From Gammaproteobacteria bacterium (lineage in GTDB: Bacteria; Pseudomonadota; Gammaproteobacteria; UBA4575), in assembly GCA_965222615.1 (NCBI GenBank), contig CBDCUI010000007.1, positions 672,001 through 736,000 on the forward strand: a stretch of DNA of 64,000 bases, written 5' to 3'. The notes under the pieces were generated by a model that searched no databases, was not told the origin of the DNA, and was given only the letters and a program-made list of their open reading frames with translations. Position 1 is the stretch's first letter; each line of letters begins with the position of its first letter. This document shows, in pieces, positions 3,983 to 48,061 of the stretch. Position numbers and translations under genes: made by a program.

Positions 3983-4057
3983 CGAGTGAACGAAATAATA
4001 AATCAGAACTTCCTAAATTGATTTTTCAAGCCTCATAATATTTTTTTGTATATTACT

Positions 4058-6229: not shown

Positions 6230-6362
6230 AAGAAGTTCTGATTTATTAATGTAATGACTGATATTAGGCAAAAGATCTCGAGCAAGCGCAGTGTATGTAA
6301 AAGTATACATGAGCATTGTGAGAGATCTTTTAACAACATATCAGAATAAATCAGAGCTTCTT
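6230..6362. mobile_element. Palindromic miniature element (RPE/MITE-like), copy 3, between hisA and hisF
   Basis: Terminal inverted repeats aagaagttctgatttatt / aataaatcagagcttctt (17/18); nested inverted repeats ctgatat..aaaagatctc / gagatctttt..atatcag; core gcgcagtgtatgtaaaagtatacatgagcatt. Confidence 0.7.
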
Positions 6363-20279: not shown

Positions 20280-23200
20280 TTATTCGTAAAGGAATTCATA
20301 CGTACCTATGAAATAGGTAAGCATGATCATCCAAGAGCGTTTCATAAAGTTGTTATCGGTAACAGAACTACAAGGTGCAGAAGTATTATCCGACTGTGCC
20401 GCATTGCGTACTTGTTGCAACAAGTTAAAAGTACGGTCTATCTCAGTATCATTAACTGATAGATTTTTACCTAGAAATCGCGCATGTAGATGCACCAAGT
20501 TTTGACGTATCGCAGCTTCTGCATTCGCAGGTGTGTCATTAGGTGAAACACTTGGGAAGAGTAAACGTTGACCTGCATTGCGATTAAAATCATCTCTTAC
20601 CACTTCACAGGAAAGTTCCGCTCCCATGCGGTCAATCATTGCAGCCATCAAGCTACTGATTTGTGTGTTACGAGTATTTTCCCTAGTTTCAATTCTGGCA
20701 TCAAAATTGCCATACATGAGGTAGTAATTGTTATCACCTATCAACCTGGTCCAGGTTTTGCCAAGCAGCGCCGTTAATTTACGGTCCAATTGCTCAGGAG
20801 TAAGTACGCGACTCGTACCTAAGTCAGCAAGCTCGGCACGGCCTGCATTGGCTAGATCCACTGAGCCCGAACGGAACCATGGGCTGAGAACTAGCTCAGC
20901 AAGTAAATGCTTAAGGTTGTGATTATTATTTCTAAATATTTGCCCGGCCTGATTAAATACCACGGTCTGCGCGTCGTATGCAGCCTGTTGTACGGGATCT
21001 GGCTCAACCGGTGCGGCAAGTGGTTTACGACCAAACAAACCTTGGTACCAGAATTTAGCCGTACCGGAATCAAAGCGGGTATCGGCGGTCATGCGTTCGC
21101 CTAACCAGCGCAAAGAGGTGTTATTTCTAGAAGTCGGTAAACCAGTGCCGGAAAATGGATAACCTGGAGCAACCATATCTCGATACCAGATGTCTCCACT
21201 TTGATAATACTTAACTCCATTTTCATCGCGAGCATTGCTGGCGTAGTAGTAACTAATGTTGGTAAAGGTCCCGCCAATGTTTCTTCGACGATAACTACCG
21301 CCACTGTTATACCAATTTTGAAATGCTCCGGCGATGGGGTCTACGGTGTTGTGGCACACTGTACAATTAGGGTTATTTAATGTCGGATTGAGCTCATTTT
21401 TTACTGAATCCACATCGATTGCACGTGTTGCCAAGGCCTCTAGATCTACCCCTAAGAAAAGGTCAGAAGTTACGCGCGCGCGCATGCGATTGCGGTTGGT
21501 ATCTGTAGATGGCCATTTGATTAAGAAACTGGGCTGGGTCAACAATCCTGCATGCGGATAGGCACCACTCATACGACCATTCATGTTTATACCTGTGCGT
21601 GCTCGAACAAATGTCTTTGCATCTGCACCATTTGGCATAGGATCTAAAAGAGTTGCTTGATACAAGTACGCACTTTCTGGATTGACCATAGTGTAATCTG
21701 CAGTAATGACTTCAGAATAAGGCCTGTCGTTACGTACGATATGCTTTACCAACTCCAGTGGTTCATATCTAAGGGCGTCTCTTAGAACATTGCGTCGTTG
21801 AGTATCCGCTTCAATTTCTGCCAAGCGTGGGTAGTCGTCGTCCCGCAAGTTACCGATAAAGTATGCCCCAGTGACTAACAACTTATCATTCACGGTCTCA
21901 CTTACGAACTTTTCAAATTCAGGCCCATTCATCATATTGATTAAAGCCTGTCTCATTTGCGCGCGATCACCTGCAGTATTTAATTCTGCTGAGGTAGGTA
22001 GACGTCCTGCAAGCATTATGGCGGCTTTACGCATCACGTCTTGGTCAGACATCGCATTTACGCCAGTGTAAAATGCCGAGTTATCTACTGGCTCAGTTTG
22101 ATCACCGTTTTCTTTAATAATGTCGCGGAACATATAAGCTGCAATATCCTTGCCGCATTGAACATCACATACACCTGGCACAGGCATTTGCGCAGTAAGA
22201 TAAGTAGCTAACGTAGCCTCATCTGCACAACGGTTTGCTTCACAGGGTTTAACGTTAATATCGCGTGGCGCAATTACTGCAACACCGTCTGCTCCATGAC
22301 AACCCGCACATGAAATTGCGTAATTCGAACCAGGAATGGCATTGTTATATAAGAACATGCCACGGTCTGGGTTCGGTGTGGTATCGATATTTACATTTAC
22401 GGAAACCGATTTACTTATATCGATGCCGTTAATGGCCTGACAATTTAACGTAAAGCTAGTAGATGCCTGTAGGTTATTAATGCTTACGCCATTAGCGTTA
22501 GATACCGCCTTGGTACCCGTCCATGCTGGGTTCGCGGGGTTCGCACTGGCAGTACAAGTACTTATATCTTTAGATTGCCAAGATAAGGTCGTCGCCATGC
22601 CCTGATCAATCGAAGTCGGTGATGCTGTAAAAGTTAAATCCGGCATAGCAGGGACAACTGTGACGGCAACGGTTGAGCTGGAAGAACCGCCTTTACCGGT
22701 ACAAGCCAGCGTGAAGCTCGTGTCTTGAATCAAGTTGGTAATGCTGACACCGTTTTGGTTATTCACTGCACGGTTACCAGACCATCCACCACTAGCTTGA
22801 CAACTATCTGCATCCGTAGAAGTCCAGGTTAAAACTGTATTACCGTTATATGGAATATTGGCCATTGGGTTTGCACTTAGGCTTACAGTAGGTGCATTAG
22901 GTTTTGCCGCTACAGTGACGGCAACAGACTTTACTTGTGAATTAATATTGCCGATAAAGCAGGTCAACATAAATGTGTTGGTGCCTGAATCAACCAGGTT
23001 GCTTAATGTTTTCGAACCCGAAGCCGTAACATCACCTTGCCACTGTCCTGCAGCCATTGCACCTGAGGCCACACATTTTTCAGCATTAGAAGTCCAAGAA
23101 AGTGCAGTCGAACCACCGTATTCCACTGAAGTTGGAGTAGCCGTGAATTGACTAATAACAGGCTGCACGTCGTCATCCATGTTAATTACTGTAACATCCG

Positions 23201-25112
23201 ATGCATTTAGCCCTTGGTATTCGTTGTCAGCACTCATTGCTGGATCGGTCACAATCATATAGCTAATCGGACCATCGACCAGGTCATCGTTTTGTCCGGT
23301 TATGGTGACAGATTGCGGAGTGTTCCAATTATCGACCGTGAAATTAACCGAGTTAGGATTAACCGTTCCCTCGCTTGTATCACTACTGCGTAAACCAATG
23401 GTGACATTTGCAGTAGGTTTTGCACCTAAAACAACCGTGAAACTTGCAGTTTGCCCAGCCTCGCTCGTGTTTAGGCCAGAGCTTGGGTTTACATTAATTG
23501 TTCTAGGAGTTGCTGGCACAACACTCACTTCTATAGATTTACTTACATCAACACCATTAATGCCTTTACAAGCCAAGGTAAAGGTGGTTGTAGCTTGTAG
23601 ATTAGAAATTTTTTCACCACCAGCATTTGAAACGGCTTTGGCACCCGTCCAAGCAGAATTTGCTGGGTTTGCGCTGGCAGAGCAAGAACTAATATCTTTA
23701 GATTGCCACGACAAGGTCGTTGCCATGCCCTGTTCCACTGAAGTCGGCGCAGCAGTAAAGGTCAATTCTGGTTTTGCGGATACCACGGTAACGGTAACCG
23801 TAGAAGAAGAACTACCACCTTTACCGCTACAAGTCAGCGTGAAGCTTGTATCTTTAATAAGTTGAGTGATGCGTACACCGTTTTGGTTATTTACTGCACG
23901 GTTACCCAACCATCCACCGCTGGCTTCACAGCTATCCGCATTCGTAGAAGTCCAGGTTAAAACGGTAGCGCCGTTATATTCAATATTAGCCATTGGATCG
24001 GCTTTTAGGCTCACGGTAGGTGCGTTGGGTTTCGCTGCTACCGTAACCGCTACTGATTTTACTTCCGAATTAATATTGCCGATTGAACAGCTCAGCATAA
24101 AGTTGTTTACGCCTGCACTGATGAGATTGTTAAGTACTTTTGAACCCGAAGCCGCGATGACGCCCTGCCATTGGCCATCCGCTGTAGATCCAGAGGCTAG
24201 ACATTTTTCTGCATTTGACATCCATGAAAGTGTCGCACTAGCACCATATTCAACAGCAGTTGGATTGGCGCTGAATTGATTGATAATCGGTTGCACGTCG
24301 TTATCGGTATTCACTACTGCAACATCTGATGCCTCTAAATTTTGATAACTTGCATCCTGGCTGACTGCCGCATCGGTGATGATCATATAGTTGATTGGAC
24401 CATCTATGACCGCGTCATCTTGACCAATTACCGTGACGGTTTGTGGGGTGTCCCAATTGTCGATGGTGAAATTAACCGCATTCGGACTGACCGTTCCCTC
24501 GGTCGTGTCACTACTGCGTAAACCAATGCTGACGTCTGCAGTCGGTTTTGAAGCTAAAACCACCGTGAAACTTGCAGTTTGACCAGCTTCACTAGTACTT
24601 AATCCTGAAGTTGGGTTTACATTGATAGCACCAGGTGTAGCTACATCATTGTCGGTATTCGTTGCACTTACATCGCTAGCATCCAACCCATTGTAATTAA
24701 TATCCATGCTTATGGCTGCGGCGGTAACAATGGTATAAGCAACATTGCCATCGATCGCGCCATCGTCTATTCCAGTAACCGTAACGGTTTGCGCTTGACT
24801 CCAATTGGTACTATCAAAACTTAAAGAAGTAGGTGACACCATGCCTTCACTGCTGTCACTACTGCTTAAGGTTATAGAAACTTCTTCACTTGGTTGTGTC
24901 ACCAGCACCACACTAAATGCAGCCATGTCTCCGTTTTCTGACGTGACCAGTCCAGTAGAAGGAGTTACTTGAATTTCCGGTGTACTAGGAATGGGATTAA
25001 CAACTTCATCATCGTCATTGCTGTCACCATCAAATAACGAGTCCCCACCGCATGCAGTTAAAAAAACTGTAGATAGTAATAAAAGACCAAACCAACGTAC
25101 CAAACAACTCAT
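20280..25112 (-). CDS. Large lipoprotein: Calx-beta-like and Ig-like repeats, cytochrome c domain, C-terminal DUF1592/DUF1588-like region
   Basis: Lipobox LTAC; three TSE.G..A.F.VVL...DND domains; six Cys-paired Ig-like repeats; CAGCH (22296-22310) and CTVCH (21351-21365); HAGLLTQ, NRNRMRAR, DPIAGAFQNW. Confidence 0.8.
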   Translation of the reverse strand: MSCLVRWFGLLLLSTVFLTACGGDSLFDGDSNDDDEVVNPIPSTPEIQVTPSTGLVTSENGDMAAFSVVLVTQPSEEVSITLSSSDSSEGMVSPTSLSFDSTNWSQAQTVTVTGIDDGAIDGNVAYTIVTAAAISMDINYNGLDASDVSATNTDNDVATPGAINVNPTSGLSTSEAGQTASFTVVLASKPTADVSIGLRSSDTTEGTVSPNAVNFTIDNWDTPQTVTVIGQDDAVIDGPINYMIITDAAVSQDASYQNLEASDVAVVNTDNDVQPIINQFSANPTAVEYGASATLSWMSNAEKCLASGSTADGQWQGVIAASGSKVLNNLISAGVNNFMLSCSIGNINSEVKSVAVTVAAKPNAPTVSLKADPMANIEYNGATVLTWTSTNADSCEASGGWLGNRAVNNQNGVRITQLIKDTSFTLTCSGKGGSSSSTVTVTVVSAKPELTFTAAPTSVEQGMATTLSWQSKDISSCSASANPANSAWTGAKAVSNAGGEKISNLQATTTFTLACKGINGVDVSKSIEVSVVPATPRTINVNPSSGLNTSEAGQTASFTVVLGAKPTANVTIGLRSSDTSEGTVNPNSVNFTVDNWNTPQSVTITGQNDDLVDGPISYMIVTDPAMSADNEYQGLNASDVTVINMDDDVQPVISQFTATPTSVEYGGSTALSWTSNAEKCVASGAMAAGQWQGDVTASGSKTLSNLVDSGTNTFMLTCFIGNINSQVKSVAVTVAAKPNAPTVSLSANPMANIPYNGNTVLTWTSTDADSCQASGGWSGNRAVNNQNGVSITNLIQDTSFTLACTGKGGSSSSTVAVTVVPAMPDLTFTASPTSIDQGMATTLSWQSKDISTCTASANPANPAWTGTKAVSNANGVSINNLQASTSFTLNCQAINGIDISKSVSVNVNIDTTPNPDRGMFLYNNAIPGSNYAISCAGCHGADGVAVIAPRDINVKPCEANRCADEATLATYLTAQMPVPGVCDVQCGKDIAAYMFRDIIKENGDQTEPVDNSAFYTGVNAMSDQDVMRKAAIMLAGRLPTSAELNTAGDRAQMRQALINMMNGPEFEKFVSETVNDKLLVTGAYFIGNLRDDDYPRLAEIEADTQRRNVLRDALRYEPLELVKHIVRNDRPYSEVITADYTMVNPESAYLYQATLLDPMPNGADAKTFVRARTGINMNGRMSGAYPHAGLLTQPSFLIKWPSTDTNRNRMRARVTSDLFLGVDLEALATRAIDVDSVKNELNPTLNNPNCTVCHNTVDPIAGAFQNWYNSGGSYRRRNIGGTFTNISYYYASNARDENGVKYYQSGDIWYRDMVAPGYPFSGTGLPTSRNNTSLRWLGERMTADTRFDSGTAKFWYQGLFGRKPLAAPVEPDPVQQAAYDAQTVVFNQAGQIFRNNNHNLKHLLAELVLSPWFRSGSVDLANAGRAELADLGTSRVLTPEQLDRKLTALLGKTWTRLIGDNNYYLMYGNFDARIETRENTRNTQISSLMAAMIDRMGAELSCEVVRDDFNRNAGQRLLFPSVSPNDTPANAEAAIRQNLVHLHARFLGKNLSVNDTEIDRTFNLLQQVRNAAQSDNTSAPCSSVTDNNFMKRSWMIMLTYFIGTYEFLYE
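22372..24625. repeat. Internal tandem duplication with 1128-bp period (376 aa: one Calx-beta-like plus three Ig-like domains)
   Basis: Matching anchors offset by exactly 1128 bp (accgtgaaacttgcagtttg at 23434/24562; gg.tgcacgtcgt at 23161/24289). Boundaries approximate. Confidence 0.85.
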
Positions 25113-27923: not shown

Positions 27924-28856
27924 TTGCAACTGTTTAGCTTTCCTTTTAAAGCAATGGGTTCGCCCTGTGAGCTAAAACTCTATGCCGGTCATAAAGACAC
28001 AGCAGACCAAATTGCGGCACAGACTATTGCCGAGATTGATCGCTTAGAAAAAAAATATTCTCGTTATCGCGATGATAGTGTCACCAGCGCCATTAACCAA
28101 AGTGCAGGTGATAAGGATGGTGTCGTCGTTGATAAAGAGACTGCACGCTTACTCGATTATGCACAAGTAGGGTATGAACAAAGTGATGGCTTATTTGATA
28201 TCACGTCGGGAATTTTGCGCAGGGTATGGAATTTTCGATCTAATGAACTTCCTATGCAAGCAGATATTGAATCGATTTTACCTCTAATCGGTTGGAATAA
28301 AATTAGCTGGGATTCGCCTCGAATTTGTTTACCACAACAAGGTATGGAATTAGATTTTGGCGGTTATGTAAAAGAATATGCTGCTGATGTTGCGGCTAAT
28401 ACCTGCCAACATGCTGGAATTACTAATGGCCTGGTCAATTTGGGTGGTGATATTTGTGTTATCGGCCCACATCCAAATGGCAACGCTTGGAAAGTAGGTG
28501 TGCGACATCCGCGCAAGCCGAATGAACCTATGTCTTTTGTATTTTTAACTAGTGGCGGCCTGGCTAGCAGTGGTGATTATGAACGCTATATGGTCGTCAA
28601 CGGTGTCCGTTATGCCCATATTCTAAATCCAAAAACCGGCTGGCCGGTTAAGAGTCTTGCCAGTACCAGTGTTTATGCACCGCAATGTGTGGTTGCCGGC
28701 ACTTCATCAACGATCGCCATGTTGAAGGGTGATATTGATGGTGTACAGTGGTTGGAAGAGCTAGGCTTACCTTACATCTGTATGAATCAGGACGAGGAAA
28801 TCTTTGGTACACTCAAACGAGTCGAAAATTTAAATGCCATTTCCAGTTTCACATGA
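27924..28856 (+). CDS. apbE: FAD:protein FMN transferase
   Basis: AMGS, GLFDIT, LDFGGYVKEYAAD, NLGGD, ASSGDYER, HILNPKTGWP. Confidence 0.93.
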   Translation: MQLFSFPFKAMGSPCELKLYAGHKDTADQIAAQTIAEIDRLEKKYSRYRDDSVTSAINQSAGDKDGVVVDKETARLLDYAQVGYEQSDGLFDITSGILRRVWNFRSNELPMQADIESILPLIGWNKISWDSPRICLPQQGMELDFGGYVKEYAADVAANTCQHAGITNGLVNLGGDICVIGPHPNGNAWKVGVRHPRKPNEPMSFVFLTSGGLASSGDYERYMVVNGVRYAHILNPKTGWPVKSLASTSVYAPQCVVAGTSSTIAMLKGDIDGVQWLEELGLPYICMNQDEEIFGTLKRVENLNAISSFT

Positions 28857-28903
28857 ACAAGCCAAGTCGAAACGTCTAGCCCATTACTAAGAAAATGCCT
28901 GTA

Positions 28904-28927
28904 AATTTGTGATTTGAATCACAATTT
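28904..28927. promoter_or_regulatory. CRP-type binding box
   Basis: aattTGTGAtttgaaTCACAattt, a perfect TGTGA-N6-TCACA (28908-28923) in non-coding DNA after apbE. Confidence 0.7.
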
Positions 28928-29014
28928 CGTGATAAATCGTTAAATAAATCATACAAATACAGTCAGTTATTGAAACAAATCTACCACTGGCGATAAAAAA
29001 AGGGTACTATTTCG

Positions 29015-29086
29015 TTGCCACATTGTTCCAACTCCAGTGGCAAACTATGAAAGCCTTGTGGAAGGATCCATGGGGCTTTCTTTATT
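29015..29086 (+). ncRNA. Candidate trans-acting small RNA with anti-Shine-Dalgarno loop
   Basis: -10-like TACTAT (29005-29010); hairpin ttgccac/gtggcaa with 15-nt loop attgttccaactcca; terminator stem 29049-29080 containing three G:U pairs (favours + strand) followed by tttatt. Confidence 0.55.
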
Positions 29087-29092
29087 ACGTTT

Positions 29093-30238
29093 TCATAAAT
29101 GTAAAAACTCCTCTATTTGATCCGCATTTTCTTCAGCATCTTTTTCACCTAGCTGAATCAGACGATCTAAATAGTCTGGTTGAAACATAAGTAGTGACAG
29201 TGAATCTGGACTTTTTGTATCCCGTGTACCAAAGCCGCGTGTAAAGTAACGAAACGGTTGCGGTAGACGAATTTCATATTGACTGGCAAGTTTTCCTAAA
29301 TCTTCACTGGGACGAAGTATCAATAGTTCTATTTTGTTTAATTCTTCACGTGCTTGTTCATCTAGTTCTTCATATAGCTCATTAATGCGATTCATGTTCG
29401 CGGCATCATGATCAAGCAAATCTAAAAATACCGAATCTAATAAAATGCCAATAACCTGTGCAAGAGGTGCATACTCGCTAATTACAGATTCGTCCGGTGT
29501 AACTTGTCCACCACGAAAGCGTGTTGAAATGGCTAAGATACGTTTCGCGCCTAAATGCATGGCAGGTGAAAGTGGTGCAATCGATCGTATACCTCCATCG
29601 CCGTGCCAACCGTCGTCAAGTTTTACCGCCGGAAAAACTAGTGGCAATGCAGCCGATGCCATTACGTGATCGACAGTTATCACTGCTGTTTCACTATGTC
29701 TTCTAGGTCTTTGCCAATGTTCATAGCCTTGACCTTGTACCCAAGTAATGGATTTACCCGTACCATAGTTTGTACTGGTGATACCTAACACACGTAAACG
29801 TCCGCGGTCGATATTTTCTTGAATACCAAGAATAGGTTCAGTTGCTGCAGATAGTAATTTTCTTACTAAAAATTGACGTAGTGGATCGCTATCTAAAAGG
29901 CTTCGCTTACGAGGACCAATATCACTACCACCTAAAATAAACCCAAATCCCCAACGAAAAAAGTTTGCTAAGAAATAACCACTGTCGGTACGAAAGACTT
30001 TGTCGGTAGTTAATTCTAGCCATAGCTCAGTAAGGTGTTCGACGGCTTCACAAAATGTACCTTGATATGCGGCAAGATGCGCGGCATTAACTGCTCCCGC
30101 AGAAACACCGGTAATAATGGGCGGTTGAAAACTGTCATATTTTTTACATATATAGCGTAATACTCCGACCTGATATGCTGCACGTGCACCACCACCAGTC
30201 ATGGCTAGTCCCAGATCATTGTTATTTGCATCTAGCAT
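29093..30238 (-). CDS. Patatin-like phospholipase
   Basis: GGGARAAYQVG, GVSAG nucleophile motif, DGG motif, SAALPLVFP. Confidence 0.92.
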   Translation of the reverse strand: MLDANNNDLGLAMTGGGARAAYQVGVLRYICKKYDSFQPPIITGVSAGAVNAAHLAAYQGTFCEAVEHLTELWLELTTDKVFRTDSGYFLANFFRWGFGFILGGSDIGPRKRSLLDSDPLRQFLVRKLLSAATEPILGIQENIDRGRLRVLGITSTNYGTGKSITWVQGQGYEHWQRPRRHSETAVITVDHVMASAALPLVFPAVKLDDGWHGDGGIRSIAPLSPAMHLGAKRILAISTRFRGGQVTPDESVISEYAPLAQVIGILLDSVFLDLLDHDAANMNRINELYEELDEQAREELNKIELLILRPSEDLGKLASQYEIRLPQPFRYFTRGFGTRDTKSPDSLSLLMFQPDYLDRLIQLGEKDAEENADQIEEFLHL

Positions 30239-40331: not shown

Positions 40332-40652
40332 TTAGTAATTTTCGTTTTGCTCTATCCTATCTTTTGGATGAATAAATCTATCTGTCCATGGGGATTGTTG
40401 CATAAACTCTAAAAATTCAAAACGGTTAATCGTGCCATTATTATTTTCATCATAACGCGCAAAGATCTCATCATCCGCTAGATTATAAACATTTTTAGCT
40501 TCATCACGGTCAAGACGCTCATTTCTATCTAAATCTGCACTCCAGAACAATCCATCCTCATAGCCTTTACCGCCACCCGCACCGAAACCAGCTATTGAAA
40601 TTGCCGGAATTGCGACTGCAGATAGTATAAAAATTGAAATAAATGTTTTCAT
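40332..40652 (-). CDS. Small exported EF-hand protein
   Basis: Signal peptide; EF-hand loops DLDRNERLDRDE and DENNNGTINRFE. Confidence 0.75.
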   Translation of the reverse strand: MKTFISIFILSAVAIPAISIAGFGAGGGKGYEDGLFWSADLDRNERLDRDEAKNVYNLADDEIFARYDENNNGTINRFEFLEFMQQSPWTDRFIHPKDRIEQNENY

Positions 40653-41450: not shown

Positions 41451-41615
41451 GGTTGTATTTGCTTCTTAGCGGTTATTTACAGTCTTTGTAGATTCTAATT
41501 ACAAGATGTATGATTTTAATGCCGTTTGTCCTACTAATTGGACCATTTACAAGGAAGAAAGCAAGTTATGCACTTAGTCTAATAAAATAAAACGTAGTGA
41601 GTTGGAGTTGGAATA

Positions 41616-41843
41616 ATGTGGGGACTAAAGAGGCAAGCGCAAGCAAAGCCTTACTTAAATAATAGACGTGGTGAAAGCGAAGATCGGCGAGTTTTTGGCC
41701 CACCGACACGATTTCCTTTTATCGACGGTACTGGGAAAATTATCAAAGTAGATCGGCGTTCAACACCTGATCGTCGATTAGCAAACATTCAAGTTAGAGA
41801 AGATTATCTGGATTTTGACACTAATCGTTTTCTTCGTAAGTGA
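41616..41843 (+). CDS. Small basic protein with repeated (D/N)RR motifs
   Basis: Strong RBS ggag; NRRGESEDRR...FPFIDGTGKIIKVDRRSTPDRR. Confidence 0.7.
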   Translation: MWGLKRQAQAKPYLNNRRGESEDRRVFGPPTRFPFIDGTGKIIKVDRRSTPDRRLANIQVREDYLDFDTNRFLRK

Positions 41844-41886: not shown

Positions 41887-42321
41887 TCAAGCAACATTTA
41901 ATCGATTCATTATGCTGCGTTTATTTACAGAGATGTCAGCAAGTGTGTATTGGTCTAATGTTTCTAAAAATGCACTTAACGCATCTGATAATATATGTTG
42001 CAGCTTACATACCTTTACTATTGGGCATTTAGTTTCTGAGTCAAAACATTCAACAATGTGAAAATCAGATTCGGTTTTTCTGATTACATCACCAAGCGAA
42101 ATGTCATGGGGATCTAGTGCTAATTCAAATCCGCCCCCCTTACCTTGAATACAATTGATGTAACCGAGTTGACCAAGCTTATGGACAACCATACGAATGT
42201 GGTGAACGGAGATTGAATACGCTTCTGCCAATTCTGAAATGGTGATCAAATTACCATCAGGTTTGCTGGCTAAATAAATTAAGACTCGCAAAGCATAATC
42301 GGAAAATTTTGTTACACGCAT
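41887..42321 (-). CDS. nsrR: Rrf2-family NO-sensing repressor
   Basis: TKFSDYALRVLIYLA, GKGGG, three Fe-S Cys in HIVECFDSETKCPIVKVC, FLETLDQYTLAD; divergent from NOR genes. Confidence 0.85.
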   Translation of the reverse strand: MRVTKFSDYALRVLIYLASKPDGNLITISELAEAYSISVHHIRMVVHKLGQLGYINCIQGKGGGFELALDPHDISLGDVIRKTESDFHIVECFDSETKCPIVKVCKLQHILSDALSAFLETLDQYTLADISVNKRSIMNRLNVA

Positions 42322-42389
42322 AAATAAATATCCTGTTTTCAGCCATAAAACAATAGCCCATATCTTACGAACAGATAGTAGTGCTTAAA

Positions 42390-42449
42390 AAGATCTATTT
42401 ACTTTAGATCTTATTAGGTATATTTTACCATCTATTTTAAATAGATGTT
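42390..42449. promoter_or_regulatory. Two NsrR-type 11-1-11 operators
   Basis: AAGATCTATTT-A-CTTTAGATCTT (42390-42412) and ACCATCTATTT-T-AAATAGATGTT (42427-42449) resemble AAGATGCATTT-N-AAATGCATCTT. Confidence 0.75.
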
Positions 42450-42525
42450 TAACTAAATAGACTGGAAAGCATTATTAAATGCAGGTTATTTGCTACGTCG
42501 ATTTAAAAATATGGAGGAGAGTATT

Positions 42526-43050
42526 ATGTATCAAGAAATCTCGTGGGTTGTGACATTAATCCTTGTGGCATTGTTGGCGTTATTTTTTATTATCGTTGCA
42601 AAAAATGCTTCGGTTACAAACACCGATTACTCCGCAATTCAAAAAAACGCATATAGTTTACGTACAAAACTGTTCTTTCTGATATTGCTTATCATCATCC
42701 CGGTTATTGGATATACCCTTACTAAGATGCCGTATCCAAAAAATTCAGCACTTGCAGAAGCTTCAAAAGTAGTCGATGCAATTGGTCATCAATGGCATTG
42801 GGAAATAAGCGATACCAGTGCAAAAGTAGGTGAAACGGTTTTATATAAGGTCACTTCTGCTGATGTGAATCATGGGTTTGGTGTCTACGATCCTGATCTC
42901 AATGTTATTGGCCAGACTCAAGCGATGCCTGGCTATACGAATAATTTGCTCATTACTTTTCAAAAAGCGGGAACGTATAAAATCCTTTGTTTAGAGTTTT
43001 GTGGTGTGGCGCATCATGACATGGTCACAGAAATAAATGTTAGTGAATAA
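42526..43050 (+). CDS. norS: Heme-copper oxidoreductase subunit II (CuA), sNOR small subunit
   Basis: QWHW, DVNHGF, CLEFCGVAHHDM CuA ligands; ATG 42526 with RBS ggagga. Confidence 0.8.
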   Translation: MYQEISWVVTLILVALLALFFIIVAKNASVTNTDYSAIQKNAYSLRTKLFFLILLIIIPVIGYTLTKMPYPKNSALAEASKVVDAIGHQWHWEISDTSAKVGETVLYKVTSADVNHGFGVYDPDLNVIGQTQAMPGYTNNLLITFQKAGTYKILCLEFCGVAHHDMVTEINVSE

Positions 43051-43068
43051 AAAGAGAGGTGGCTAAAA

Positions 43069-44505
43069 ATGAATACGCTTAGTGTACCCATCGCAGGAAA
43101 GAGAACGATTTACGCCTATATCGCTATATTTGGTGCGGTAGTGGTGCTTATGATGTTTCTGGGTTTAGTCATGCGCGCTGCACAAGGCGGCACACTTGCA
43201 ATTGCGCCCGACTTTTTTTATCAAATTATGACTGCACATGGAGTTGGTATGGTGGGGATCGCTGGTTTAGGGGGTGCGGCCATCATGTGGTACTTCTTAC
43301 GCCAGTATGTTGAGTTGTATACGGGGATTTTGGTTACTAACCTACTATTGTTTCTCACTGGTGTAGTGTGCATTCTTGCGGCTATATTTTTAGGTAAATT
43401 TGGTGCTGGCTGGACTTTTTTATTTCCATTGCCTGGTCAATCCGCAGGCGCATGGCCTGCAGGAGCCGCCGTATTGTTTCTCAGCGGTGTGTTAATTATT
43501 GGTGTCGGCTTTTTATTGTTTTACTTAGATGCGGGGCGTGCCATTATTTCGAAATACGGTAGCTTTGCAAAGTCTTTGGGTTGGCCACAGTTGTTTGGAA
43601 ACGACGATGGCAATGCCCCTCCTCCAACCGTTGTGGCAAGCACGATGGTCACTATTGTAAATACTTTAGCGTTGATTGCAGGGGCTTCAATATTGGTCAT
43701 GATGATTATCAATATATTAATTCCATCGTTTAAGGTAGATGCACTGCTTGCTAAGAATTTAATCTACTTTTTTGGTCATACCTTCATCAATGCGACGATA
43801 TATATGGCGATTATTTCTGTATACGAAATTTTGCCTAGATACACCAATCGTCCTTGGAAATCTAACAAAATATTTTTAGCTGCTTGGACCGCATCTACCA
43901 TCATGGTGCTGATTGTGTATCCTCATCATTTGTTTATGGATTTCGTTATGCCAACCTGGATGCTTGTCATGGGTCAAATCATCTCCTACACAAGTGGACT
44001 GCCCGTATTACTTGTCACCATGATTGGAACCTTAGCTATTGTGCATCGTTCTGGTATTAAATGGGATCTGGCATCCGGCTTACTTTTCTTTTCTATTTTT
44101 GGTTGGGCCGGTGGTGTCATCCCCGCAGTGATCGACGGAACCATTGCCGTAAATCACGTCATGCACAATACCATGTGGGTGCCTGGCCATTTTCATTTTT
44201 ACTTAATTTTGGGAATGGTTGCGATGGTATTTGGCTTTATGTACTACTTACTTAAAGCGGAGAAAAACTGTACCGATAATGCAATCGATCGCGGTGGCTT
44301 TTGGATCTATGCCATCACTGGCACGGTATTCGTGTTTATATTTTTAATTTCCGGTAAAGAAGGTATTGCTAGGCGCTTTGCAGTACATTTCCCTGAATGG
44401 CAGAGTTATTCCAGCATCGCTTCGATTTTTGCCATATTTATTTTACTCGGTGCAGCGATATTTACGCTACGGTTCATATTGCGTTTAAATTCCAAGCCTG
44501 TATAG
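43069..44505 (+). CDS. norY: Heme-copper oxidoreductase subunit I, sNOR-type nitric oxide reductase
   Basis: MTAHG, GWTF, FFGHTFINATIY (Asn at the cross-link Tyr position), YPHH, HNTMWVPGHFH, RR. Confidence 0.8.
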   Translation: MNTLSVPIAGKRTIYAYIAIFGAVVVLMMFLGLVMRAAQGGTLAIAPDFFYQIMTAHGVGMVGIAGLGGAAIMWYFLRQYVELYTGILVTNLLLFLTGVVCILAAIFLGKFGAGWTFLFPLPGQSAGAWPAGAAVLFLSGVLIIGVGFLLFYLDAGRAIISKYGSFAKSLGWPQLFGNDDGNAPPPTVVASTMVTIVNTLALIAGASILVMMIINILIPSFKVDALLAKNLIYFFGHTFINATIYMAIISVYEILPRYTNRPWKSNKIFLAAWTASTIMVLIVYPHHLFMDFVMPTWMLVMGQIISYTSGLPVLLVTMIGTLAIVHRSGIKWDLASGLLFFSIFGWAGGVIPAVIDGTIAVNHVMHNTMWVPGHFHFYLILGMVAMVFGFMYYLLKAEKNCTDNAIDRGGFWIYAITGTVFVFIFLISGKEGIARRFAVHFPEWQSYSSIASIFAIFILLGAAIFTLRFILRLNSKPV

Positions 44506-47956: not shown

Positions 47957-48061
47957 ATTTATTCATCCAAAAAATAATAGTTGTATATCGCGTCGTAAGC
48001 CGGTAAAAGCAGCGTATTGTACTGAATATATAATCCTTAACAAGCTAAGAGGGCACAATTT

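Follow-up and report, generated by a model that had tools for sequence, protein, structure and literature searches.

The window, the whole stretch of 64,000 nucleotides analysed here, carries a candidate small RNA (sRNA) gene at 28956-29090 (+) and, further along the same strand, a short gene at 41616-41843 (+) whose start region is complementary to it. Coordinates are window positions unless a contig is named, and G000 is the window's own genome. The short open reading frame (ORF) encodes an arginine-rich protein of 75 amino acids with the motif RR..DRR..FP..D..G..DRR..PDRR..NI.V (hereafter the DRR protein). Its orthologues are 48-71% identical and all begin with MWGLK or MLGLK, and ten residues (RR, FP, G, DRR and RR) are invariant in alignment A4, which holds 19 DRR sequences; by the evidence of these sequences, the ORF is a real gene. 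The family is multi-copy, with 11 matches in G000. We found no Pfam or NCBIfam match for the DRR protein; its Atlas matches were 'hypothetical protein' clusters at 0.89, below the lead level of 0.9, and its AlphaFold2 model (pLDDT 62.5, pTM 0.22) did not reach the quality that a fold search needs. G000 has two nearly identical copies of a tandem arrangement of two DRR paralogues, at C6:6540-7194 and C9:57373-57991; C6 is a small contig and may be a repeat of the C9 region that the assembly left unresolved.

Upstream of the DRR gene, TAAAAT at 41583-41588 (+) is a possible -10 element, which would imply a 5′ untranslated region of about 20 nt, and a block gtcta-ataaaata near the DRR start is common to G000 and a G002-like contig. 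A promoter scan of the + strand at the DRR gene returned no sigma-70 match.

The candidate sRNA locus and its conservation

We delimited the sRNA candidate by alignments and a covariance model, with the conserved block beginning near 28956 and including an invariant CTACCAC at 28981-28987. The RNAalifold consensus places a seed hairpin at 29017-29041 (+), formed by the arms GCCAC (29017-29021) and GUGGC (29037-29041) around a 15-nt loop (29022-29036), AUUGUUCCAACUCCA; the hairpin contains an anti-start codon, CAU (29021-29023), and an anti-Shine-Dalgarno (anti-SD) element, CUCC (29032-29035). This hairpin is unchanging in 18 full-length and two truncated copies, and its stem pairs form in every aligned copy; because nothing in the seed stem varies, covariation there is impossible. 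Loop bases in G000 mostly have unpaired probabilities of about 0.7-1.0 (three are at 0.40-0.48), and the stem arms are paired. An intrinsic terminator follows at 29049-29087 (+), with a 14-pair stem, a 4-nt loop and then a T-rich tail. Five of its stem pairs are variable, each altered on one side only and all still paired, and its T-tail is found on the + strand only, making it strand-specific. Overall, the alignment of sRNA copies consists of an invariant 26-nt core, GCCACATTGTTCCAACTCCAGTGGCA, a near-invariant terminator and variable flanks.

A query of 161 nt recovered the sRNA locus in 9 of 41 relatives. In the genome collection, 17 further records at species level contain the exact core, all of them metagenome-assembled genomes labelled Thiotrichales or Gammaproteobacteria (one label being wrong). 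The covariance model, built from the 18 full-length copies and searched in 56 family genomes of 11 genera, detected a single copy in each of 20 genomes from five genera (g1, g2, g6, g7 and g9); the search for diverged homologues with altered seeds gave none in g3, g4, g5, g8, g10 and g11. At all 18 loci, the sRNA is flanked by the 3′ ends of apbE and of a patatin-like gene (apbE -> sRNA <- patatin), with no conserved ORF on either strand. No Rfam family matched the sRNA in a search of the whole window at the gathering threshold or of 28800-29150 at E<=10, and literature text searches for the seed sequence, or for Thiotrichales sRNAs with Hfq, returned nothing relevant.

Upstream of the sRNA lies a CRP-type palindromic box, TGTGATTTGAATCACA (28908-28923, +), a conserved TGTGA-N6-TCACA to which a CRP-family regulator would bind. 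It is present in 18/18 full-length copies, with half-sites identical in most and one base off in a few. In one locus (L058, on contig C25 of G046), the box lies about 20 nt, or two helical turns, nearer the sRNA than in the other 17, a shift reminiscent of class I versus class II activator positions. The pattern TGTGA-N6-TCACA occurs 16 times in the G000 genome versus 3.6 expected (reversed control, 2), and three G000 proteins of CRP/FNR type exceed the Pfam HTH_Crp_2 cut-off. A CATAnnAATAC block upstream of the sRNA is also conserved, and the promoter scan recognised no sigma-70 consensus for the sRNA.

Predicted pairing of the seed loop with translation starts

We read both strands of the duplex from the window sequence: CCACATTGTTCCAACTCCA on the RNA side (29018-29036, +) and TGGAGTTGGAATAATGTGG on the mRNA side (41603-41621, +). 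They form 18 Watson-Crick pairs and one G:U in a single unbroken run of 19, the same count as in the first-pass annotation, and two further wobbles (U41602:G29037 and G41601:U29038) lengthen the duplex as that annotation had proposed, giving a DRR mRNA target site of 41601-41621 (+). As also described there, the duplex spans the Shine-Dalgarno (SD) GGAG (41604-41607) and the AUG (41616-41618) of the 75-aa ORF, the AUG lying opposite the sRNA CAU. The statement that exactly the hairpin loop meets exactly a translation start is accurate for the start and approximate for the loop: 'exactly the loop' is slightly generous, because the duplex takes up four nucleotides of the 5′ arm of the stem besides the whole 15-nt loop. 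Of the 19 pairs, 6 fall in ATGTGG, the conserved start of the coding sequence, and 4 in GGAG. The spacing of 12.6 kb between sRNA and target, which had been part of the original proposal, is without significance for a trans-acting RNA.

The caution that an 18/19 match can arise by chance in 64 kb was warranted, as at least one distant inverted match of this quality appeared in 65% of 40 Markov shuffles compared all-against-all (3 loci in the real window versus a mean of 0.9). Other such matches in the window lie at 3994-4012 / 6230-6250 and 40358-40377 / 47957-47976, and their number fits the shuffled expectation. Chance does not account for the DRR match, because on the RNA side it involves the unvarying seed of a conserved sRNA. 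Searched with this one seed, the window contains two matches at <=3 mismatches (the sRNA gene itself and the DRR site) versus 0.02 expected. The whole 3.1-Mb genome contains five, of which the DRR start has 1 mismatch, two others have 2 and the remaining two have 3. None of 300 shuffled decoys, nor any of 300 decoys keeping GGAG and ATG in place, matched the genome at <=1 mismatch; decoys averaged 0.55-0.59 matches per genome at <=3 mismatches versus 5 for the real seed. Three of these five genomic sites put the ATG of a long ORF in the same register, namely those of the DRR gene, a 1323-aa PilY1-like protein and a lipoprotein.

By RNAduplex energy only, a genome scan gave -40.9 for the DRR site versus -40.7 for an internal site on C9. 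Because this energy-only ranking discriminated poorly, we adopted an estimate of hybridisation plus unfolding, calculated for the 70 best start-region-overlapping matches among the top 400; it approximates IntaRNA and is not IntaRNA itself. With the unfolding costs of both RNAs added, the DRR start ranked first at -21.4 kcal mol−1, followed by an internal TTG (-14.5 kcal mol−1) and the PilY1-like gene (-11.6 kcal mol−1); the genome-wide ranking that had been suggested as a check thus places the DRR start at the top in G000, within this IntaRNA-like approximation. The other DRR paralogue starts tested in G000 were without complementarity (-4 to -16 kcal mol−1).

We searched the family for the complement of the 19-nt seed at <=3 mismatches. 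In nearly all genomes with the sRNA there is a second site, TGGAGTTGGAACAATG with AAT, AAC or AAA after it; this site is the ribosome-binding site (RBS) and start codon of a lipoprotein of about 750 amino acids whose N-terminal domain has CxxCH and is cytochrome-c-like (translation of 11, protein search); Pfam and NCBIfam matches of this lipoprotein are weak. The 16-mer is exact in 18 genomes, and the 19th (G046) has one A-to-G change that gives a G:U pair, so that complementarity is kept in 19/19 sRNA-bearing genomes with an assembled 5′ end. In g8 and g11, where the sRNA is missing, the start regions of nine more distant homologues are unrelated (-13 to -22 kcal mol−1). The G000 gene lies outside the window at C9:1115469-1117579 (relatives, L136-L154), and its start is unreadable because the gene runs off the end of C9 at residue ~54. 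The co-occurrence of the seed with a complementary lipoprotein start is the strongest evidence that the loop would pair with translation-initiation regions, and the CxxCH lipoprotein is the predicted universal, core target of the sRNA. Of the 'specific sRNA-target pair' originally proposed for the DRR gene, the credible pair therefore stands and its exclusivity does not, since the core target is the lipoprotein gene elsewhere.

Two neighbourhoods in the window may relate to this core target. A 1610-aa ORF at 20280-25112 (-), 4 kb upstream of the sRNA, is a core-target paralogue with 44-49% identity over the repeat region, and no seed complementarity was seen at its start. Beside the DRR gene, 41887-44505 holds a convergent gene for an Rrf2-family regulator and a COX2-domain gene with a 478-aa ORF after it; the group is possibly a respiratory or NO-related cluster, next to a predicted target of an sRNA with a cytochrome-like core target.

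The conserved block could instead be something other than a trans-acting RNA: a DNA- or protein-binding element, a 3′ end or terminator region that the convergent apbE and patatin genes have in common, or an element acting mainly in cis, antisense to patatin read-through. Its constant position between the apbE and patatin stop codons and the undetected sigma-70 promoter would fit such roles, as would the minus strand, which is without a good T-run after the hairpin, so that a transcript reading through from patatin would be the perfect complement of the sRNA. However, a plain terminator needs neither an invariant 26-nt hairpin nor a conserved upstream CRP-type box, and the terminator found here acts on one strand, while a cis-antisense role would leave trans targets possible. 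The perfect co-occurrence with a complementary start on an unlinked gene (19/19) also argues against these roles, and we consider them very unlikely.

Even less credible, to the point of being nearly negligible, is that the block belongs to a minus-strand gene for a small protein (MWQRN...) and supplies its RBS and start, with the likeness to the DRR gene reflecting start-region homology rather than RNA pairing. Read on that strand, the block is TGGAGTTGGAACAATGTGG, with a good RBS and ATG and a protein that also starts with MW. Against this, the frame has 3-18 codons, stops at <=11 codons in 8/18 species and is poorly conserved past MW, and the small ORF was rejected on the basis of this length and truncation. 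Furthermore, the likeness to the starts of the DRR and lipoprotein genes breaks off abruptly at the edges of the seed, and the terminator and box indicate the + strand.

The features of an Hfq-type sRNA that we found are an independent, conserved intergenic non-coding gene, a Rho-independent terminator with a U tail, a conserved accessible seed complementary to conserved target sites, and hfq in the G000 genome (PF17209 match, 102.7 bits). Judged from its sequence and that of its relatives, the locus looks like one encoding a genuine, conserved trans-acting base-pairing sRNA.

Outside the window, the 1323-aa PilY1-like protein, which carries the vWA MIDAS motif DDSGSMD, is a predicted accessory target (G000 C7:541055-541073, -). 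Its RBS and ATG show a 17-nt exact seed complement in G000 and 16/19 in G014 (C1:1985598, -), and the PilY1-like genes of G046 and G047 are without seed complementarity; we regard the gene as a candidate for a second, patchy accessory target. The G014 PilY1-like gene and a G000 lipoprotein have a C-to-A mismatch at the same site position. In G002, a 17-nt exact seed complement, TGGAGTTGGAACAATGT (C111:1576-1594, L085), precedes only a 6-codon frame and may act as a sponge, belong to a leader peptide or be the remnant of a former target; chance is unlikely at 0.02 expected per genome. Three extra sites in G001 were rejected as targets, as only 10-27-codon frames follow them, and sites at <=3 mismatches in the sRNA-less G020, G015 and G016 were likewise rejected, being at unrelated positions or non-genic.

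Conservation of the DRR pairing

Whether the pairing is preserved in related genomes, a point on which the proposal had been staked, has a divided answer: it is kept in G002 (genus g2) and missing from 5/5 orthologues in g7. The G002 site, TGGAGTTGGAGCAATGTGG, forms 18 Watson-Crick pairs and one G:U with the same seed, the wobble being shifted to the neighbouring position (positional orthologues: ...GGAGCAATG in G002 versus ...GGAATAATG in G000), and farther upstream the intergenic DNA before the DRR gene has diverged between the two genomes. In g7, synteny between the DRR locus and the sRNA is kept: the two share contigs, at a distance of 9-12 kb. The five syntenic orthologues (G019, G014, G041, G047 and G007) face an identical seed with 9-11 Watson-Crick pairs and a longest run of 6 (AUGUGG); because they lack the pairing despite this seed, it is dispensable for the DRR family.

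The sRNA is present in G001 (the window's genus), G006 and G009, where no close DRR orthologue was found with the DRR query. A G002-like contig (L106), colinear with 29.3-41.8 kb of the window, is 95% identical to G002, and the synteny of the G002 orthologue was read from it; our metagenome scan for DRR relatives yielded five loci including one orthologue, 95% identical to G002 and hence no independent lineage. More DRR orthologues (P0002, P0004, P0006, P0007 and others) are known as proteins only. A tree of apbE and patatin, built from these two genes with midpoint rooting and with one node at 0.49 support, groups G000 with G001 and G002 with G009 and G006, both apart from g7; G000 and G002 are not sister lineages in it. 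From this tree, the pairing therefore spans the depth of the G000/G001/G002/G009/G006 clade where the gene is present (2/2 genomes).

True compensatory changes are not scorable because the seed never varies. On the target side, the changes are wobble-compatible: C-to-T and A-to-G in the DRR site, and A-to-G in the core target of G046. Between the G000 and G002 sites, 11 of 13 upstream bases are identical versus a background of ~55%, for an estimated p of ~0.03, or ~0.15 without GGAG. The conservation evidence for the DRR target is weak, because G000 and G002 are related and their sites differ by just two substitutions. Retention of the pairing in G002 is suggestive, not strong, and these alignments make it plausible that the DRR gene is an accessory, lineage-specific target in G000 and genus g2.

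The same data bear on whether the sRNA is real and its match to the DRR gene without regulatory consequence, either as a fortuitous or neutral likeness to the true target or with RNAs that are never co-expressed. The five g7 orthologues lacking the pairing, the frequency of 18/19 matches in shuffled windows, and the pairs owed to GGAG (four) and the conserved MW coding start (six) all speak for such an outcome. It conflicts with the seed-fixed statistics, in which 0/300 decoys equalled the match genome-wide even with GGAG and ATG kept, with a register identical to that in the core target, with the first rank of the DRR site after accessibility correction, and with retention of the site in G002 through wobble-compatible changes only. 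Known sRNAs also make do with duplexes far shorter than one of 19 bp that covers SD and AUG. We regard a match without consequence as unlikely. We instead favour the DRR mRNA as a genuine direct target of the sRNA in the G000 organism, with a probability of roughly 0.65 on sequence grounds, in which case the sRNA most likely turns the DRR gene off.

Proposed mechanism and relation to known sRNAs

We propose that a trans-acting sRNA, probably Hfq-dependent, would be transcribed from about 28956-29090 (+), probably under a CRP-family regulator acting at the TGTGA-N6-TCACA box. Its seed loop would serve as an 'anti-translation-initiation-region', with CUCC against the SD GGAG and CAU against AUG in a fixed register, and would pair with mRNAs bearing TGGAGTTGGAAnAATG at their start. 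Once paired, the sRNA would keep the 30S subunit from reaching the SD and AUG and would thereby repress translation, and mRNA decay would probably follow the translation block. The predicted core target is the CxxCH lipoprotein; the DRR gene has the same start-region sequence in G000 and g2, and its start is the strongest predicted target in G000, with 19-21 contiguous pairs. The mechanism is most likely classical SD/AUG occlusion of a small regulon, with no new mechanism involved.

CRP-type boxes also accompany the DRR family itself. Perfect boxes lie 78-93 nt upstream of two DRR paralogues in G000 (C6:6872-6887, C9:57644-57659 and C8:470362-470377), one of these paralogues being duplicated on contigs C6 and C9, and the DRR orthologues of the G002-like contig and of G014 are each preceded, at a distance of ~130 nt, by a box with one mismatch (alignment A3). 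At the G000 DRR gene, 41451-41615 contains no CRP-type box within two mismatches (degenerate box). The DRR family may thus belong to the same CRP-type regulon as the sRNA; that a CRP-family regulator drives both the DRR family and an sRNA repressing one of its members is speculative. In a wider reading, which we hold to be doubtful, the sRNA would be the post-transcriptional arm of a CRP-family regulon in which the 16-nt address TGGAGTTGGAAnAATG is gained and lost quickly, and an incoherent feed-forward loop would link the regulator, the sRNA and the DRR proteins. Bearers of the address would then be the CxxCH lipoprotein everywhere, the DRR gene in g1 and g2, and the PilY1-like pilus/adhesin gene in G000 and G014. 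It is from the boxes upstream of DRR paralogues and orthologues that this loop, acting on arginine-rich small proteins, is proposed.

Among known sRNAs, the closest analogue is the enterobacterial, cAMP-CRP-activated CyaR (RyeE; RF00112), described in PMC11795201 as CRP- and Hfq-dependent and as blocking ribosome binding at the ompX SD. Both CyaR and the window sRNA are short RNAs with an upstream CRP-type site, a seed against the SD of several mRNAs and an intrinsic terminator. They differ in that the RF00112 model, like every Rfam family, has no match at the locus, and the continuous 16-19-nt seed against SD and AUG is a feature of the window sRNA. The window sRNA also belongs to another taxon (uncultured metagenome-assembled genomes labelled Thiotrichales or Gammaproteobacteria), has other predicted targets (the CxxCH lipoprotein, the DRR protein and the PilY1-like protein), and owes its putative CRP dependence to the box only. 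By this analogy, the window sRNA most likely works like CyaR, but outside the CyaR family.

Spot 42 (spf) is repressed, not activated, by cAMP-CRP and has several unstructured seed regions. PMC8916003 presents it as an enterobacterial base-pairing sRNA that is linked to the CRP regulon and encodes a 15-aa protein. The window sRNA resembles it as a base-pairing RNA with a CRP link (in its case by the box only) and differs in having no Rfam match and no conserved ORF. In staphylococcal sRNAs with RsaE/RNAIII-type UCCC loops, an anti-SD hairpin loop occludes the RBSs of a regulon. The window sRNA has this logic in common with them, but they come from another phylum, have another chaperone dependence and show no sequence relation, and the window loop adds an anti-start codon at fixed spacing. 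Because its loop combines anti-SD and anti-start at that spacing, the predicted targets share a whole 16-nt start-region 'address'. The 'candidate new regulatory circuit' of the first-pass annotation would accordingly be new as an sRNA family and familiar in its kind of control, that of an anti-Shine-Dalgarno sRNA.

If this reading is true, the locus would represent a new family of sRNAs, found neither in Rfam nor in our text searches, in a lineage of gammaproteobacteria that only metagenome-assembled genomes document, with an unusually clean regulon backed by comparative genomics. Accessory targets including the DRR gene would apparently have been recruited by acquiring the same start-region sequence, which would make this a convenient natural case for how sRNA regulons grow. 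For the uncharacterised, multi-copy DRR family, co-regulation with a CRP-type box would provide a first functional handle.
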